Positions 1 to 8,679 of a stretch of DNA of 8,679 nucleotides are shown here, in pieces. Each line of letters opens with the position of its first letter. Position 1 is the stretch's first letter. This DNA comes from Amoeboradix gromovi X-113. Its lineage: Eukaryota; Fungi; Sanchytriomycota. The notes beneath the pieces are model-generated. The model saw only the letters and a program-made list of their open reading frames with translations. It was not told where the DNA came from and did not search any database. The translations under genes and the position numbers were made by a program. The DNA lies in contig JADGIF010000432.1 of assembly GCA_018985225.1 (NCBI GenBank), positions 1-8,679 of the forward strand. The letters are read 5' to 3'.

Positions 1-253
1 TACCAGTACCAATAAAAAGAAGCCCTATGATATTGAGAGTTGTTTATTTTTTGTCTTTTTCACTTTCACGCCAACGGTAATTCGAGCTACAATTGTAGTC
101 GTGAGTATCATAGTGATATCAAGCCGGGCGAGAACATGCTTAAATGTTACCTACTTAAATTGCCTAAATCTAAGAAATGTTAGCTCTACACATCCAAACT
201 AGGACTAGTAAGTTTAATATTTCAACAGGATAAAACAATTCAAAACTTCCCCA

Positions 254-1376
254 ATGCCTAGCTTTTTCATTTCTTTTCCAGGCACCAAGGACATTTTAGG
301 TCTTATTAAAAGTTGCAACGAAGGTGTTTCTAATATTTTTAAAGTACCGTCCCTAAAAGTGGGCACACTTGATGATCTCATTAGTACTGGTGATGAATTA
401 TTAAAACAGGACAAATTCGTTGAACAAATAACTCTTAAAATTATGGACTATTTACAGTCTCTTACGACCATGATTCTATATGTTAGCAATAAACCGGTAA
501 ATGAATATATTAAAGATTTTGAATGGAATACCCTTCGTTATCGTCATGATAAACCGCTAAATACAATTCTTGAATCAATAATGGCTGAAATCGTAGGCAT
601 AGATAGCACATTGAAACAGAAAATGGCAGTCTATAATCAAACCAAGTCTCAGCTGCAGCAGTTGGAAAGAAAACAATCTGGTACCTTATTGACGAAGTCC
701 CTGTCTGAAATAGTTAAAAAAGAAGACTTTGTTATAGGTAGTGAATACCTAATCACAATACTAGTAGTAGTCCCTTCCAAATTAGAAGAAGAATGGAATT
801 CTGAATATGAAACGATCTCAGAAATGGTTGTGCCTCGCTCGGCAAAGAAGCTAGCAAACGATACGGATTATTGCTTATATACTGTTGTGATATTCAAGAA
901 ATTTAAAGATTCATTTACGGAGAAGTGTTCCAAAAAGTACCATATTCGTGACTTTCAGGTGGATGGCCAAGAAGACTTGGAAAAAGAAATTGGGGCGTTA
1001 TCCACATCTGTAAAAGAACAATGGGTATTCTATTCTGATTTAGTCTGGACTAGTTCGATTATTAAAAAGTAATTTTAGTGATGTTTACAGCGCTTGGATG
1101 CATATTAAAGCTATGAGAATATTTGTAGAAAGTGTCCTTAGATATGGAGTACCTCCTGAGTTTGTTAGTTTAACAGTGCATTGCAAAGACGATAAGAAAC
1201 TAAAGAAGCAACTGAGTGAGTTGTATAATAAACTTACTAATTCTAAGAATATCAACTACACAAAGGGACTGACTAACGACCAGAAACAATTGATAGAACA
1301 GCATATGGCGACATTAAATTTGGAAGATTCTTTTGAGGAGTATTTAATAATGCCATTTGATACGTTGATTAAATAA
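254..1376 (+). CDS. VMA5: V-type H+-ATPase V1 subunit C; exons 254..1024 and 1044..1376, 367 aa
   Basis: Family motifs FKVPSLKVGTLDDL, F.WN..RY, SEYLITILVVVP, MVVPRSA, HIKAMRIFVESVLRYGVPP. Removing 1025..1043 joins ORFs 254..1072 and 1098..1376 as ...KEQW|SGLVRLLKSNFSDVYSAWMHIKAMR..., matching the conserved subunit C segment (LVRWLKVNFSEAF.AWIH.KALR type). Confidence 0.96.
1025..1043 (+). other. 19-nt spliceosomal intron (phase 0) in V-ATPase subunit C
   Basis: GTATTCTATTCTGATTTAG; GT...AG ends, CTGAT at positions 11-15; removal restores the frame and conserved protein sequence. Confidence 0.92.
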
Positions 1377-1381
1377 ATAAA
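1372..1381 (+). terminator. Putative poly(A) signals (two overlapping AATAAA) fused with the VMA5 stop codon
   Basis: AAA TAA ATAAA: AATAAA at 1372..1377 and 1376..1381 overlap the TAA at 1374..1376. Confidence 0.55.
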
Positions 1382-1501
1382 TTTAATTTGTAATCAACTC
1401 GCGTGAAGATATTAACAATTTTTTGATAGCTATAACTATGCTATGCCATGTGATAACTAGATCCCCGAGTTTATAGTCTGTCCACGTGGAGATGTTGAGA
1501 C

Positions 1502-1939
1502 ATGTTAACAGTATTGATAGCATTGGTTTTGGGAGCCAGCACAATTAGAATAGTAAATCCGACTACCAGTAGTACATGGACTCCAAACCAAGACGTGTAC
1601 GTTGTTTGGGAGGTTGTGAATTCAGGAAACGACAAGCTGACTTTTAATTTGATGGATGGTAGCCAAGGAAATAACGACGCACCATTAATCAAAGTAATTG
1701 CGGATAATGTAAATCCGAATGCCAAAAAGTTAAGTTATAAAGTACCAGGTGATGTAAATAGTGGAAAGTACTTTATTCAAGTCGTTCCTAATGATGGTAA
1801 ACCACAATATTCATCAACATTCCAAATAGGTGAATCCACTGAATCTACAAGTGGAGATCCTGCAAAAGCTCAGACGTCATCATCGCAATCATATTATCCT
1901 TATTCGTCTCTGTTCTTGTTTGGGTTCGTAGCAAGTTAA
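1502..1939 (+). CDS. Small secreted Ser/Thr-rich, probably GPI-anchored protein with a Kre9/Knh1-like N-terminal Ig-like domain, 145 aa
   Basis: Hydrophobic leader MLTVLIALVLGA; pattern I.NP...STW......V.W ... L.L ... IA.NV ... YKVP.DV.SG.YFIQ ... YSSTF.I typical of the fungal Kre9/KNH-like domain; S/T-rich linker; hydrophobic C-terminus SSLFLFGFVAS. Confidence 0.8.
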   Translation: MLTVLIALVLGASTIRIVNPTTSSTWTPNQDVYVVWEVVNSGNDKLTFNLMDGSQGNNDAPLIKVIADNVNPNAKKLSYKVPGDVNSGKYFIQVVPNDGKPQYSSTFQIGESTESTSGDPAKAQTSSSQSYYPYSSLFLFGFVAS

Positions 1940-1943
1940 TAAA
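1938..1943 (+). terminator. Putative poly(A) signal fused with the stop codon of the GPI protein gene
   Basis: TAATAAA: stop TAA 1937..1939 overlaps AATAAA. Confidence 0.55.
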
Positions 1944-2057
1944 TTGTTGTGAAAACATTTTCTTTTGAGACATTTTACACCTGTTTCATATTCGATCTTT
2001 TGAATTTCATGTATAATGACTAGGCCATTGTTTAGACATCACCAGGAAGTCTAGGCT

Positions 2058-2510
2058 ATGTCAAATCTTCCCTCGCATGCAGATAATCCACTGTTCAGAT
2101 TCAGAAATATCCAGCTACGCCAGCAACAGAGACAAGGTAATATGAGAATTCCAATTAGAAATCATCATAGTCTTCAGTGCGTGTTTTGCTCTACATGGCT
2201 CACTAACAAAGCTCAGAAAGCTATATTGCTAGCAGATAATCAACGCGAATTATTCAGTAGCGATCAATCTCCAAGAAATGCTTCTCTCATAGGTGTTGAC
2301 TATTCAACAGAGAAGTGCAGGTGCCTAATTAGAAACATAGCTTGTCTAACTTGTGGCAATAATGTTGGCTACCATGTAAGCCAGCCCTGTCGAAGTTGTC
2401 TCGATCATAGTCACAATGGCCATTTCTTTATGTTCCATTGCGCTAGCGTTAAAACTATGGAAGGTAGAAAGGATTCTGTACATAGCTTAAAAAGCGAAGC
2501 TCTTAGATAA
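2058..2510 (+). CDS. FAM72: FAM72 family protein (Yippee/Mis18-like zinc-binding fold), 150 aa
   Basis: C.FC...L...A.KAILLAD...ELFSSD..P, CRC.I..IACL.CGN.VGYHV..PC.SCL....NGHFFMFH closely match the human FAM72A motifs as I recall them (KAVLLAD...DLFSTD, CKC...DIACLKCGNIVGYHV..PCSSCL...NNGHFWMFH). Confidence 0.92.
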   Translation: MSNLPSHADNPLFRFRNIQLRQQQRQGNMRIPIRNHHSLQCVFCSTWLTNKAQKAILLADNQRELFSSDQSPRNASLIGVDYSTEKCRCLIRNIACLTCGNNVGYHVSQPCRSCLDHSHNGHFFMFHCASVKTMEGRKDSVHSLKSEALR

Positions 2511-2521
2511 GCAGAGACACA

Positions 2522-2527
2522 AATAAA
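2522..2527 (+). terminator. Putative poly(A) signal of FAM72
   Basis: AATAAA 11 nt after the stop. Confidence 0.45.
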
Positions 2528-2635
2528 TAGAATCATCACATCCTTTTTCTTTAAGTTAGTTACGGCATTTATTCAACAAGAATTTAAGGACTCCCCCGGA
2601 GTATTTCCACTGTAAACCTTTCTCATAAGGTTGCT

Positions 2636-3880
2636 TTACAATTTTAGCACTTCTTTTAGATCCTGAGTAAAGTTTGCAACTGAGGCGTTTCCAGAATAGT
2701 AATCTTTGTTGAGCCTTAGAAAAGGCGATATTACTGTTCTATTTTTGGTATCTTGCAATGTGATATTCATGAAATTTGCCAACTGTATTACCGAACTATG
2801 CACCATCGAATCAAATCTTTCAAACTTGCGATAAAAAACGGGTAAAAGAAATTTCTCAAGCGCAGAGTTTGTTTCAAATCCTTTCATAGGCTCAGTATAT
2901 GAATCCAAAATAGGGTAAATAGTCGCGGCAGCAAGCCTATTAAAAGATGCGGGAAACACTCCCGGAAAGAAATTTCTGAGGTTTCCCTGATCTAGCATCC
3001 AATCCAATGCAATCAATGACCTGCTGCTTTTATCCGATCCACCAAGATCGCTATGCGACCCAGAAAAGTACACCTGAGAAAAGTTTGGATTGTTTAAATT
3101 AATAGCTGAATAGTTGAACATAGTACGGTACTCATTAATCGCGACCGCATGGCTACAACGTAGCACATTACTTCCAATCGTGTCTGACATATGAACTAGT
3201 TTTTTAGACTTGAATGCTATTGATACTTGGTTCCAAACTGGTTTTACTTTTTGTATAATGTCTTTCAATAGACTGTCGATAAAAGACCTTTTACTTAAGT
3301 CCGGTTTCGCTCGTAGTTGTGATCTTAGTATGTGCAAAGTCTCTTGGGCAGTAGAAACTGCGAGCACAGAATCAAATAGTCCGAGAAATGTTATTTTTGG
3401 AATCCAGCCAAGGACACTTTGGAAACTCGGTTCTAACATTGAATTTTGCAATCGATTGTATCTGAGATTTTTATCGCTTATCCCATACAGCGCCAAATAA
3501 TTTGAAAGAAACCTTGCAGAAGTTGCTCCTCTGCTGAATCCAAATATTCTTAAAACGTCATTCTTTTTCAAGTTCCGTACTAGAAATTCATAAGCAACAT
3601 AAACCCATTCTTCTATGCCATACCCAGTGAGACCTTGAATTTTGTTTCTCAATCGATTTTTGCTAGTACCTAAACCATACAAATAGATAGCCTTGTCTTC
3701 ATTTTGTGTTTTTACTAATGAAGTTATTTGAAATTGTTTACCTTTAAAATTGTTATATGTAGAGTTTCCTGGGTAGCTCTTAAACATTTTGAAAATGTTA
3801 GTGTTACTTTTTTCGTCATTCCAAGTCCCATCAAGGAAAACAAAAATGTTTTTGCACAGCATCAGGGATATCCATATCAT
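2636..3880 (-). CDS. DUF2235 / T6SS Tle1-like alpha/beta hydrolase (putative secreted lipase or phospholipase), paralog A, 414 aa
   Basis: Motifs DGTWN, TNI, Y..GLGT, GFSRG (nucleophile elbow), FLGLFDSV, HAVAINEYR..F, F.G.HSDLGG, L.WM; short hydrophobic leader MIWISLMLC; intronless. Confidence 0.9.
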   Translation of the reverse strand: MIWISLMLCKNIFVFLDGTWNDEKSNTNIFKMFKSYPGNSTYNNFKGKQFQITSLVKTQNEDKAIYLYGLGTSKNRLRNKIQGLTGYGIEEWVYVAYEFLVRNLKKNDVLRIFGFSRGATSARFLSNYLALYGISDKNLRYNRLQNSMLEPSFQSVLGWIPKITFLGLFDSVLAVSTAQETLHILRSQLRAKPDLSKRSFIDSLLKDIIQKVKPVWNQVSIAFKSKKLVHMSDTIGSNVLRCSHAVAINEYRTMFNYSAINLNNPNFSQVYFSGSHSDLGGSDKSSRSLIALDWMLDQGNLRNFFPGVFPASFNRLAAATIYPILDSYTEPMKGFETNSALEKFLLPVFYRKFERFDSMVHSSVIQLANFMNITLQDTKNRTVISPFLRLNKDYYSGNASVANFTQDLKEVLKL

Positions 3881-4022
3881 ATGTAACGTTGTGGGAATAT
3901 TTCATTGTCATATTTAAAGGAACGGCAGCCATTATAATTGGATAATAGACGCTCTGTGACACCCACAATGAATACTAGGAAATAAACAAAAATAAATAAC
4001 ACATAATTAAAATTTAAATGAA

Positions 4023-4028
4023 TTTATT
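4023..4028 (-). terminator. Putative poly(A) signal fused with the stop of DUF2235 paralog B
   Basis: Minus strand TAATAAA overlapping the stop at 4029..4027. Confidence 0.55.
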
Positions 4029-5280
4029 AAGACAATATAGCTTTCAAATCTCTGCTAAAATTTTCTGAAGAAGACTTCCCAGATAAATAATCTGCTTTTA
4101 ACCTCAAAAACGGTGATATAACATTTCTATCAATTATGTCTTCCACGTTTACCTTCATATAACTCGCTACTTCTCGTACCGATCTATGTACCAAGCTATC
4201 ATACATTCCAAATGATCTATAAAAAACTGGTAAAAGCTTTTTTTCAATACTCGTATCAGCATCAAAAGAGCCCATTGGTTCAGTGTAAGAATCAGAAATT
4301 GGATAATCTAGTCCCGAAGCTTCTACATTGTAGTCCAAAGGTAATATGTTTGGAAAGAATTTTTCAAGCTCACCTTGATCTAAAATCCATTGCAACGCAA
4401 TTGATGATCTTTCAGAAGTTACCCATCCGCCTCCGCCTATATCGCTGTGTGCTCCCATGAAGTAAGACTGAGTGAAATTTGGATTTTTCAAATCGATGCT
4501 AGAGAAATTAAACATTGATCGATATTCATTGATTGCAACTGCGTGACTGCATTTTAATACATTACTACCTAGAGCATCTGACATATGCACTAATTTGCCA
4601 GATTTGAATGCCAAAGCTATGGTATTGAGGTTGTCCTGTACATCAGACTTCACATTTCTTATCTTATCCTTTGCGTTGTTCCAAAAATTGCTTATGAATC
4701 CACGCTTTTTGAGATTTATATGTCTTATGAGTGTGCCTAAAGTATCATCTACTGTTGATACTGCTACTACAGAGTCAAACAAACCGAGAAACGTAATTTT
4801 AGGGATCCAACCAGACAAACTTTTAACTGCTGGATCCAACAAAGATTTTTGCAATCTAGAATGTCTAAGGTTTCTGTGGTTTATCCCGTACAAATTCAAA
4901 TAGTTGCATAACAATCTAGCTGTGGTGGAACCTCGACTAAATCCGAATACACGTAAATCATCGCCATCCTCTAGATGCTGCACTAGAAACTGATAGCCCA
5001 CTTCAACCCATCCTTCAATACCATACCCAGTTAATCCTTGGATTTTGTTAAGCAACTTATTTGAGGTGGTTCCCAGTCCATACAGGTATATTGCTTTATC
5101 TCCATTATGATTCTTAATGAATGAAGTAACACCAGATGTGCCGGTATAGGGATTGGCTTCCGCCTTGCCATCAAAGCTGTCAAACATTTTATAAATGTTG
5201 GTATTGGTTTTATCATTGTTCCAAGTACCATCAAAGAAGACAAATAAATTTTTGCATAGAGCCAAAGATAGAAAAAGCAT
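4027..5280 (-). CDS. DUF2235 / T6SS Tle1-like alpha/beta hydrolase, paralog B, 417 aa
   Basis: Same motif set (DGTWN, GFSRG, FDSV, HAVAINEYR, GAHSDIGG); colinear with paralog A over the full length; leader MLFLSLALC; intronless. Confidence 0.9.
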   Translation of the reverse strand: MLFLSLALCKNLFVFFDGTWNNDKTNTNIYKMFDSFDGKAEANPYTGTSGVTSFIKNHNGDKAIYLYGLGTTSNKLLNKIQGLTGYGIEGWVEVGYQFLVQHLEDGDDLRVFGFSRGSTTARLLCNYLNLYGINHRNLRHSRLQKSLLDPAVKSLSGWIPKITFLGLFDSVVAVSTVDDTLGTLIRHINLKKRGFISNFWNNAKDKIRNVKSDVQDNLNTIALAFKSGKLVHMSDALGSNVLKCSHAVAINEYRSMFNFSSIDLKNPNFTQSYFMGAHSDIGGGGWVTSERSSIALQWILDQGELEKFFPNILPLDYNVEASGLDYPISDSYTEPMGSFDADTSIEKKLLPVFYRSFGMYDSLVHRSVREVASYMKVNVEDIIDRNVISPFLRLKADYLSGKSSSENFSRDLKAILS

Positions 5281-5479
5281 GGTAACATTCTAGAAAGAAT
5301 TGCTTTCATTGACCGAAATAGACCTAAAAAAATCTTTGATTGGATTTTTCAATCTTAACTCCTTAGAGAAACTGAAATTATCCTAAACCCTATAATTGGC
5401 ATTCGTTTTCTTCAGTTATCTCAAGCTAACTATTTTCGTGTCAAGTTTGAATATAAAATTTATAATCTCCAAGTTTCAT

Positions 5480-6671
5480 ATGATTACAAACGAAGCGCCA
5501 TCTAAAGACGAAATTCAGCATATTTTTCAAAAATTAAAACCAAAATCTACAGCATGCTTTGATTGCGGACACGCTTCTCCAACTTGGGCCTCGATTAGCA
5601 ATGGCTGTTATTTGTGTATAAGTTGTAGCGGTCAACATCGTCATTTAGGTGTCCATTTAAGTTTTGTTCGTTCAACGACTTTAGATAGCTGGTCATGGGA
5701 TCAACTAAGACGAATGAAGTGTGCTTGTAAACCCAGCAACATTAAAAATCAACTGCAATCAACAAAGGGTGATTTACAAGTGAAATACTCATCCCCATTG
5801 GCTGCTAAGTGGCGTAAAATACTGGATGATGCTGTAGAACAAGATAAAATTGATTTCCCGGATACCTTTAATTTAGAAGTTACAAGTCCCATTGATCGTA
5901 AAAAGAGTGAAGATTTTTTCAATAGTTTTCCTGATCCCGGTAACAAATCTTCACAAGATGCACCTGTTTGGCAAGATGAAGAGACCTGGGATAATCCAGC
6001 TCCTGTACAACAGCATTTTCAAACAGCCCAACCTACCATAACAATCACTGGTAGAAAAGGTAAGCTGGGAACTAAAAAAGTAATCAACTTGGATGAAGCT
6101 GAAAAAAGAGCTAATAACATACAGGTTATTCAAACGCAGCAGCAGAGCATCAAAACTCAACAGCAGCAAGCGCCGATTGTGGTTCCATTGATAATCAAAA
6201 ATTCTCCATCTGTCGTAGCTGCTCAAAAACCTCCGCAGCCTTTAGAGATGGATGAATTAAGTGAAAGATTAGGAATCGGATTCAAAAAGATGTCCGTGCA
6301 ACCGCAACAACAACAGTTGAAACCATCCACTTCTTATAACGACTCTGATGAAGCTCAACGCAGATTTAAAAATTCTAAATCTATTTCTTCAGACCAATAT
6401 CATAATACTGAACCAGTGGCTGTATTTTATACTCATATAGGACCCTGTTCAAATTAATAAATTCAACAATGCAAAAGCCATAAGTAGCGATCAGTATTTT
6501 GGAAGAAAAGAAGAGGAGGATCCAAAGTCATTCGACGTAAGTGGTAACGTTGATGGTGTAGCTAGGGATATAGCTCAGAAATTTGTAGAGCAGGCGCAGT
6601 CTGATTTAAATACTTTAAAGAATGTTGCCGAAGTAGGCGTAAAGAAACTTGCTGAATATTGGAAGCAATAG
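5480..6671 (+). CDS. GLO3: ArfGAP2/3 (Glo3-type) ARF GTPase-activating protein; exons 5480..6421 and 6441..6671, 390 aa
   Basis: Zinc finger CFDC-X16-CISC, HRHLGVHLSFVRST.LDSWSW.QLR.M, basic KGKLGTKK segment, and two Glo3-motif repeats (KSISSDQY in exon 1; KAISSDQYFG only after removing 6422..6440). First in-frame ATG is at 5480; the ORF track's 5396 start is a TTG. Stop TAG at 6669..6671. Confidence 0.94.
6422..6440 (+). other. 19-nt spliceosomal intron (phase 0) in GLO3
   Basis: GTATTTTATACTCATATAG; CTCAT at positions 11-15; removal gives ...EPVA|DPVQINKFNNAKAISSDQYFG..., restoring the second Glo3 motif. Confidence 0.92.
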
Positions 6672-6673
6672 CT

Positions 6674-6679
6674 AATAAA
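6674..6679 (+). terminator. Putative poly(A) signal of GLO3
   Basis: TAG CT AATAAA; 2 nt after the spliced-model stop, which independently supports exon 2. Confidence 0.55.
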
Positions 6680-6698
6680 CTGTATAATTCAATTTCAC

Positions 6699-7467
6699 CT
6701 ATTTATTATTTTTGTTTAATCCGTCTTTTGATTTACCTTTAGGTATTTTACTTGCAAATGACTTGAACCATGTGCGGTCACCGCTTTTAGTCAAAACTCT
6801 TTTGTACCGATCAATGAACACTATTTGCAGATTGTTAAATGCGCCACGCCTTTTTTCTCTGATAAAATCAATGGCATCCAAGTTCTGCATGCCGTGCTCA
6901 ATTAAAGCAATTGCAATTAAAACAGGAGCACGACCCATCCCTGCTACACAGTGAACTGCGATAGTGGGACGATCTGTATTTAAATTTAGAGATCCTCTAC
7001 TAGACTGTAAATCGGAAGGAGGAATAAACTTTTGCTTCATTGGAAATACATCACTAAAACGATCGGAAACTAAGCCCTAAATTAGCAAAAACCACCAGAA
7101 ATTTTAGAACAACAGCTTGAGGAGGAGTACCTCCATCGATATAAGGTACATCTAGAACATTGATACCTTCACTGAGAAGTGATTTCGTAGTATAAGTAGG
7201 TTCGCAAACACGGACAACATCACTGACTTTGTATTTTTTAAATTCAGCGAGAATCGCGGAAAGTGTAGATTCTGTGGGACAATCTAGTATGATGAATTGT
7301 AAACCATTGTATTCAATTACACTAAAAATACGCTTCAAGTCAAACTTGATTCCAGAAGCTGGGGGAATAGAAGAGCTCACGGATGCGGCAATAGAGGGCG
7401 GTTTTGAATCCAGAGGCTTATCAATTTTCTCTTTATCAGTTTTGCGGAATAATTTAGAAAAGGGCAT
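6699..7467 (-). CDS. PTP4A: PRL / PTP4A-family protein tyrosine phosphatase; exons 7467..7096 and 7076..6699, 249 aa
   Basis: IEY....F.I.DCP...[16 protein letters not shown], active site [23 protein letters not shown]...[15 protein letters not shown]. Removing 7077..7095 joins the two ORFs as ...VVLKFL|[17 protein letters not shown]... Confidence 0.93.
6702..6707 (-). terminator. Putative poly(A) signal encoded in the last two codons of the PRL gene
   Basis: Minus strand AAT AAA TAG (Asn-Lys-stop). Confidence 0.45.
7077..7095 (-). other. 19-nt spliceosomal intron (phase 0) in the PRL phosphatase
   Basis: Minus strand GTGGTTTTTGCTAATTTAG; CTAAT at positions 11-15; restores the frame. A second GT 3 nt downstream (16-nt intron, adds one Val) is also frame-compatible; 19 nt is preferred by analogy with the other two. 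Confidence 0.85.
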
Positions 7468-8219
7468 AATTCATAAATTGTTTTCAGGAGAGAAAGTTTC
7501 AAGCTTTTAAACCACGTTGAAACTTCAGTGTCATATTTATGGCCCGATAAGAAGGTCTCGCTTTCTCTATAACACTAAAATTTTGAGTATGGTAATATGA
7601 ATCCTTAATATATCTATCAGTTTGCCACTCACTTGAAGACTGCTCATCAACAATAGTCCTGGTTTAATCGTGAATAAGGAATCTACTCAGAGAAACCAGC
7701 AAAGCTAGACCAACTATTGTGTTGCTTGCTGACATTTCGCTGCTTCAAGTCAGATGTATACACTTGAGGTAACACGTTTGACATCTTTGACTTCACATAC
7801 TCTAACTGTTTTTAAGGTTGGGTACAAAGATAAAAAGAAAAATATGAACAAAAAAAGACAGAAATTTTTATTGGAAAATACAGATGAAAAATCACTTTGG
7901 CTAACTTGTCATCGTAAAGTTCTTGCAGCTGATTTCAGAACATGCAAGCTATGTTACTTGGCCATCAGTTAATGCTGCAGTTGTCAGTCGCAACCTTTAT
8001 CTGTAAGCAAAAACGATAATTCTCTTGTTGTTGAAATTTTAATCTGAACATCTCAACAGCAGCTACTACGCTATTCCAGCACATCTCTGCATGTCCAAAG
8101 ATGAATTGTGTTATTTGACCTCGTTCTACACGATTTTACGATAAAGCTCTTGTTCATACGTGATGGATAGTCTTATGGTGCAATGTTAAAGTTACATTGC
8201 GATATAGAAACTCCCTGAA

Positions 8220-8679
8220 ATGTTAACTGTTATGGTACTTGTTAGTGCAATTGTGAATGCGATGGGTGGCCTTAGTGCCTACTCAACTGCTGCATATAAA
8301 GCAAAGGCAGAATTAATGAAACATTTTACAGAGCCTTCTTTTAGTGACGAGAAGCTCCTGTTGAGTTGTATGATGGATCCCGAGGCATCTGAATGCTTTG
8401 GCAGTATTGGTTATGACAAGTTAATTGAGGAGTCCAGAAACGGCTTTGTTAGACAGCAATTGAATGGTATTTTCAGTGACCAGGAAGTAATCCAGCAGGC
8501 GGAAATCTTAAAAGCACGCTATCCTGACTCGCTTGACGAACATAGTGCTCTGATGAGTACTGCAGTATCCAAATTTGGCGTTCCTGTTTGTGCTGCCCCT
8601 GGTACTAACTCCATCCATAGAGATTTAAAAAAAAGAAATGGTTATGGCATGGGTGCTCTTGCTCTCGGCTGTGCGGCAG
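8220..8679 (+). CDS. Hypothetical secreted preproprotein, 3'-truncated by the window edge (at least 153 aa)
   Basis: Stop-free frame from ATG 8220 to the window end: MLTVMVLVSAIVNAMGGLSAYSTAAYKAKAELMKHF...SIHRDLKKRNGYGMGALALGCAA; signal-peptide-like N-terminus and a dibasic LKKR site. Absent from the ORF track because there is no stop in the window. No family recognised. Confidence 0.75.
   Translation, partial: MLTVMVLVSAIVNAMGGLSAYSTAAYKAKAELMKHFTEPSFSDEKLLLSCMMDPEASECFGSIGYDKLIEESRNGFVRQQLNGIFSDQEVIQQAEILKARYPDSLDEHSALMSTAVSKFGVPVCAAPGTNSIHRDLKKRNGYGMGALALGCAA

Follow-up and report, generated by a model that had tools for sequence, protein, structure and literature searches.

Spliceosomal introns of 21 nt or less have been published from ciliates, rhizarians and nucleomorphs, and how a spliceosome acts on introns far below its own footprint is an open question. 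In the human spliceosome, joint binding of U1 and U2 takes about 50 nt from donor to branch, and spanning the B complex takes about 52 nt (PMC6692369). In the ciliate Stentor coeruleus, introns of 15–16 nt have their putative branch A at −6 (position 10 in those of 15 nt, 11 in those of 16 nt), so that the donor distance varies while the 3′ tail is fixed; the commonest intron has U at +5, all five snRNAs are kept, and U1, U2 and U6 are unchanged (PMC9505925). A molecular caliper has been proposed for the introns of 18–21 nt in the nucleomorph of Bigelowiella natans (PMC6009652), and the parasite Mikrocytos mackini holds its introns to a very narrow 16–17 nt (PMC10245619). In the fungus Yarrowia lipolytica the branch motif lies 2 nt from the AG, with the A at −6 and no polypyrimidine tract (PMC2483917).

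Sanchytrids are alga-parasitising fungi whose phylum is sister to Blastocladiomycota. We found no description of their spliceosomal introns in the literature searched, outside which most subscription papers lie. Published sanchytrid proteomes were called by TransDecoder on genomic contigs (PMC8371127), and intron-bearing genes are therefore truncated in them, as are three Sanchytrium tribonematis proteins here. We here describe three 19-nt inserts in conserved genes which are very likely real introns.

Genomic setting and three 19-nt inserts

The window, by which we mean the whole stretch of 8,679 nt analysed, is compact and eukaryotic in character, with a GC content of 36.6% (34.6–36.3% in sanchytrids) and seven complete genes separated by spacers of 27–199 nt. 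Its closest named relative is S. tribonematis (protein identity 56% for V-ATPase subunit C and 58% for ArfGAP). In trees of both proteins (14 rows for V-ATPase C and 13 for ArfGAP) the window, environmental relatives and S. tribonematis form one clade with 100/100 support, and chytrids, blastoclads and animals fall outside it. On these protein trees, the source of the window is therefore a sanchytrid. The genes and candidate introns are:

254..1376, + strand: V-ATPase subunit C gene (Pfam PF03223)
1025..1043, + strand: candidate 19-nt phase-0 GT..AG intron of V-ATPase C, GTATTCTATTCTGATTTAG, putative branch A at 1038
1502–1939, + strand: small, intronless Kre9/KNH-like gene (Pfam PF10342)
2058–2510, + strand: intronless YPEH2ZP gene (Pfam PF14976)
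2636–3880 and 4027–5280, − strand: tandem Tle1-like/DUF2235 paralogs with an alpha/beta-hydrolase domain (PF09994)
5480..6671, + strand: ArfGAP gene, Glo3/ARFGAP2-3-like (Pfam)
6422..6440, + strand: candidate 19-nt phase-0 GT..AG intron of ArfGAP, GTATTTTATACTCATATAG, putative branch A at 6435
6699..7467, − strand: PRL/PTP4A-type phosphatase gene (a phosphatase by Pfam)
7077..7095, − strand: candidate 19-nt phase-0 GT..AG intron of PRL/PTP4A, GTGGTTTTTGCTAATTTAG, putative branch A at 7082

Intron density is thus three in seven genes. The two Tle1-like/DUF2235 paralogs are intronless and share 59% identity across 407 residues. The convergent ArfGAP and PRL stop codons are just 27 nt apart (6672–6698), and the 3′ untranslated regions of these two genes therefore probably overlap. 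An open ORF from 8208 has no Pfam match. One contig of a DNA run, X1, spans 51–7591 without a gap and differs at six letters, none of them inside the introns, although X1 is possibly the window's own source and the agreement is then not independent. Summed depth in X1 reaches 5990 in the first bin (window 1–80), and the last 1.1 kb (7540–8679) matches many variant contigs at two- to three-fold depth, which suggests that both window ends are repeats.

Each insert interrupts a conserved reading frame, and its exact removal brings the ortholog frame back in all three genes. The predicted products lengthen from 272 aa with the intron retained to 367 aa spliced (V-ATPase C), from 325 to 390 aa (ArfGAP) and from 137 to 249 aa (PRL phosphatase). 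The PF03223 profile is matched over 30–279 before the V-ATPase insert and over 276–358 after it, in another frame, and the exon downstream of each insert stays conserved in sequence.

Insert boundaries were placed by a ranking blind to any motif, in which all frame-restoring GT/GC..AG deletions of 4–80 nt were made and their products scored against orthologs. The 19-mer came first of 11 candidates in V-ATPase C and first of 24 in PRL, where choosing it means skipping an in-frame GT at 16 nt. In ArfGAP it came second of seven, the top three having one acceptor in common, and alternatives with a GC donor (22 nt) or a GT donor (25 nt) scoring within about 4 units; the acceptor is hence pinned and the donor ambiguous against distant orthologs. 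The 25-nt GT donor is impossible in three relatives, which have T, I or S at that codon. The GC 3 nt upstream could be the donor of a 22-nt intron.

Introns of relatives and the history of the sites

Public ORFs of relatives were called without splicing and consequently run into their introns. We back-translated these tails and tried GT..AG lengths of 12–39 nt for the one that restores the downstream exon, a procedure that, applied as a control to the three ORFs of the window itself, gave 19 nt as the best length. A length of 19 nt was inferred for P0003 (10 of 11 exon residues recovered), P0134 (ArfGAP; 5 of 6) and P0124 (2 of 3), and 20 nt for P0133 (ArfGAP; 5 of 5). P0002 (21 or 19 nt) and P0251 (19 or 20 nt) yield a length solely on the reading of their stop as the TAG acceptor. 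The ArfGAP intron thus measures 19 nt in the window and in S. tribonematis and 20 nt in P0133. All nine introns with both ends placed (three in DNA and six inferred) fall within 19–21 nt, a count that covers three gene families and, in back-translation, lengths below 40 nt, and in which the inferred members are degenerate back-translations, several of them at orthologous, non-independent sites. Four further ORFs (P0004, P0132, P0125 and P0123) end before the acceptor, show 5′ ends only and stand outside the nine-intron 3′ count, P0123 also outside the +5 count; at 17 nt P0125 is a poor fit to YTNAY, with an unreadable 3′ end. P0126–P0128 are not sanchytrid-like and were left out.

In V-ATPase C and in ArfGAP alike, the ORFs of three relatives lose the conserved frame at the window's codon, so the break is common to four organisms in these two genes. 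An animal-like V-ATPase C gene, L001, carries at this phase-0 site a GT..AG intron of 145 nt, from which the V-ATPase C intron appears to be an old one that has shrunk to 19 nt. A scan of metagenomes for the relatives' DNA (45 of 64 parts) gave one locus among the matches listed, an animal-like one; viral and prokaryote scans gave no DNA of the relatives.

For PRL, relative P0122 is uninterrupted at the window's junction and fits the 19-nt splice with no added residue, not the 16-nt alternative. The window's PRL site is empty in all five sanchytrid-like PRL proteins (P0122, P0123, P0124, P0125 and P0251), and these break at up to three other places, among which paralogy may be mixed in; the pattern points to very small introns having been gained recently, or turning over fast, in this family. 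A longest contig of 26,070 bases is listed for each of P0003, P0133 and P0122, which makes it probable that V-ATPase C, ArfGAP and PRL also lie next to one another in that relative, the first with a 19-nt intron, the second with a 20-nt intron and the third with none.

These comparisons bear on whether the inserts are spliceosomal at all. They could instead reflect an assembly error, a pseudogene frameshift, ribosomal frameshifting or bypass, or an intron cut by IRE1 or a tRNA-type nuclease. Size would suit the last of these, given that fungal HAC1 introns, which IRE1 cuts, are about 19–23 nt long. We nevertheless regard this whole group of explanations as very improbable: GT..AG ends and a common 3′ motif recur in three unrelated genes, two of them break at the same place in four organisms, L001 has an intron at the V-ATPase site, and the exon after each insert is conserved. 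Folding gave no stable structure around the inserts beyond shuffled sequence (z = 1.10, −0.78 and 0.69), and hence no stem-loop of the IRE1 or tRNA type, and the window has no match to Rfam families at E up to 1.

Sequence signals at the two intron ends

The preliminary description placed CTNAT at positions 11–15 of each of the three introns, with the A at position 14 (−6), which we confirmed. The strict fungal form CTRAY fits two of the three and YTNAY all three; among the 60 GT..AG stretches of 19 nt on both strands of the window, YTNAY stands at 11–15 in only three, the introns. When the intron interiors were permuted with their composition preserved, the 8 of 15 identical columns gave P = 0.0003 and YTNAY at one common offset P = 0.004. 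Similarity was concentrated towards the acceptor: five of seven columns agree in the 3′ part (P = 0.002), against three of eight in the 5′ part (P = 0.18).

In the nine-intron set, seven members have a fixed A at −6, two of which depend on reading a stop codon as the acceptor, and the remaining two allow it; T at −8 is fixed in five and allowed in four. The element originally proposed, CTNATWTAG, proved too narrow, three of the introns inferred in relatives being incompatible with C at −9, and the common core is T(−8)..A(−6)..YAG. The departure from randomness falls in the nine 3′-terminal bases, where T stands at −8, A at −6 and Y at −5, followed by YAG.

YTNAYNYAG occurs six times in the 6,474 sense-strand bases of the seven genes, three times as introns; none of the three exonic copies has a GT at 19–21 nt, and one has a GT at 18. 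The same bases hold 79 decoy GT..AG stretches of 19–21 nt, and requiring T-8, A-6, Y-5 and YAG leaves one of them, an exonic 21-nt stretch, whereas the donor features alone (purine at +3, T at +5) leave 19 and do not discriminate; these rules were drawn up after the introns were known. The combined pattern recovers the three introns and no others in the window. Shuffles and decoys thus support the initial view that sequence information resides in a branch-like A at −6 fused to YAG, and the lack of a polypyrimidine tract between branch and AG is likewise borne out.

The donors had been called almost devoid of consensus. This stands as far as G at +5 is concerned, which none of the three DNA donors has, and for the 5′ part as a whole; it does not stand for +3, a purine wherever readable under the preferred readings, or for +5, where 10 of 12 readable donors have a fixed T and 11 of 12 exclude G. 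T at +5 persists while +4 varies among orthologs that are 56–72% identical as proteins. These donors represent five independent sites, four with T at +5, in introns whose interiors are 58% T (P about 0.11 for 4/4). With so few independent sites in T-rich introns, the case is stronger for loss of G at +5 than for a newly acquired T rule there, the latter being only suggestive. Absence of +5 G does not exclude membership of the U2 type, the commonest Stentor intron being alike in this respect.

The persistence of +5 T is nonetheless what would be expected if the introns were real and their donors read by sequence, with a changed GTRNT consensus to which the U1 5′ end or the U6 ACAGA box had coevolved and with intron length merely a by-product of genome shrinkage. 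There is precedent in Entamoeba, where U1 has changed to match GUUUGU (bioRxiv 2022.06.08.495308), and U1-70K, Luc7 and Prp40 are annotated in Amoeboradix gromovi. We consider this explanation unlikely, because the T-rich interiors could supply +5 T at four of five sites, the 5′ half is no more alike than its shuffles, the donor features leave 19 decoys, and Stentor has its +5 U despite unchanged U1 and U6 (PMC9505925).

The preliminary description further suggested a ruler, with the donor chosen at a fixed distance from CTNATWTAG. All three window introns and three inferred ones are 19 nt long, the 16-nt GT is skipped in PRL, and the caliper proposed for Bigelowiella introns of 18–21 nt is of this kind (PMC6009652). 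However, position 14 is T in the 20-nt ArfGAP intron of P0133 and in the 21-nt reading of P0002, so the branch appears to track the acceptor while the donor-to-branch distance varies from 14 to 16 nt; this variation rests on one well-supported 20-nt intron, in which A at −6 is allowed but unfixed, and one ambiguous 19/21-nt case. On the question raised at the outset, whether introns of 18 or 20 nt would vary in donor-to-branch or in branch-to-AG spacing, the 20-nt case points to the former with the latter staying put, and 18-nt introns are absent from the set. The exclusion of C at −9 in three inferred introns also counts against a ruler set on CTNATWTAG, as does an exonic 19-nt GT..AG stretch with T-8, A-6 and YAG at 5670–5688, in conserved ArfGAP coding sequence, which argues that length plus a minimal 3′ signal is insufficient. 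A strict caliper is hence improbable, more so than a donor read by sequence, and a narrow window of distances, with branch-to-AG constant, fits better than a fixed ruler.

A predicted splicing route and its known counterparts

The reading we favour, and think probable as a whole, is that the inserts, which are very likely U2-type spliceosomal introns of the ordinary kind reduced almost to minimum size, are likely defined from the 3′ end. U2 would pair with YTNAY and bulge the A at −6, and the acceptor would be the AG five bases past it, making a polypyrimidine tract and scanning unnecessary. The donor would be the closest upstream GT that leaves a minimum of some 14 bases to the branch A, the permitted distance being about 14–16, with the weak GTRNT sequence contributing little; the GTs passed over in PRL (16 nt) and ArfGAP (25 nt) fit such a rule. 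A lariat loop of 14–16 nt would result. The judgement that 14 nt is too short for U1 and U2 side by side holds up, the distance being far below the roughly 50 nt of the human spliceosome (PMC6692369). On size, therefore, U1 and U2 would not sit together on the intron as they do there, and sequential binding or shortened helices would follow: U1 would bind briefly, earlier or across the exon.

The eggNOG table of A. gromovi (PMC8371127 supplement) annotates Prp8, Brr2, SF3B1, both U2AF subunits, SF1/BBP and Prp5, as well as U1-70K, a U1A/U2B″-family protein, Luc7, Prp40, Yju2, Cwc25, Isy1 and Dbr1. A lariat-forming U2 spliceosome with U1 parts is therefore, by these annotations, probably present in sanchytrids, and with U1 proteins in A. 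gromovi the donor may well be read by U1. SF1/BBP is split over two adjacent ORFs of one contig there, as an uncalled intron would give. Prp28/DDX23, U1C, Prp39, Slu7, Prp18 and Smu1 have no row in the 3,755-row table, which covers about half of an intron-blind proteome and was queried by KEGG and KOG identifiers, so that their absence serves as a lead and not as evidence. Yeast can do without Slu7 and Prp18 when the branch-to-AG distance is short, and without Prp28 if U1C or the pairing of U1 has been weakened. A bolder proposal, which we hold to be speculative and rather unlikely, is that sanchytrids have arrived at the shortest introns of any fungus or animal through a rewired early spliceosome: U2 and U2AF would recognise branch plus acceptor as a single element of 9 bases, and the donor would go to U5/U6 within the 14–16-nt window with little or no stable U1 pairing, once the +5 G rule had been lost along with Prp28, U1C, Slu7 and Prp18.

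If the inserts are spliced, gene finders with a minimum intron of 20 nt or larger would miss such introns, and gene-loss claims for Sanchytriomycota may need rechecking. Sanchytrid introns would separate the donor-to-branch constraint from the branch-to-AG constraint, and a fungus with a readable branch motif offers a geometry that is legible from sequence and directly comparable to yeast components.

At 19 nt these would be shorter than any fungal spliceosomal intron that we found in print. The architecture itself is, by our comparison, a known solution reached again in a fungus, because Stentor and Y. lipolytica have the same 3′ geometry. Stentor shares the GU..AG ends and AU-rich sequence as well, but it is a ciliate with introns 3–5 nt shorter and thousands of them annotated, against the three read in the window, and in its introns the A is the whole of the branch consensus, whereas a motif resembling YTNAY is kept in those of sanchytrids (PMC9505925). 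Yarrowia matches in branch motif, A at −6 and lack of a polypyrimidine tract, yet its introns are long (median 204 nt), with a strong ACTAAC and no donor-to-branch constraint described (PMC2483917). The Bigelowiella nucleomorph, a relic green-algal nucleus, shares the range of intron sizes but has about three introns per gene, compared with three in the seven genes of the window, and no discernible branch A (PMC6009652). Mikrocytos is likewise a parasite with narrowly sized introns; it is, however, a rhizarian with highly conserved intron sequence and 17–19 spliceosomal proteins, no U1 or U5 snRNA having been identified, whereas the sanchytrid table lists a broad protein set (PMC10245619). Among parasitic opisthokonts, Encephalitozoon cuniculi also has short spliceosomal introns, but of 22–76 nt and with strict donors (PMC3629993), and myxozoans have short introns with donors reduced to GTa, though longer ones (lowest median 22 nt), in which the A drifts from the AG with intron length, the opposite of the pattern inferred for sanchytrids (PMC13644364). 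Set against these systems, the lineage looks to be the new part and the geometry one already known elsewhere.
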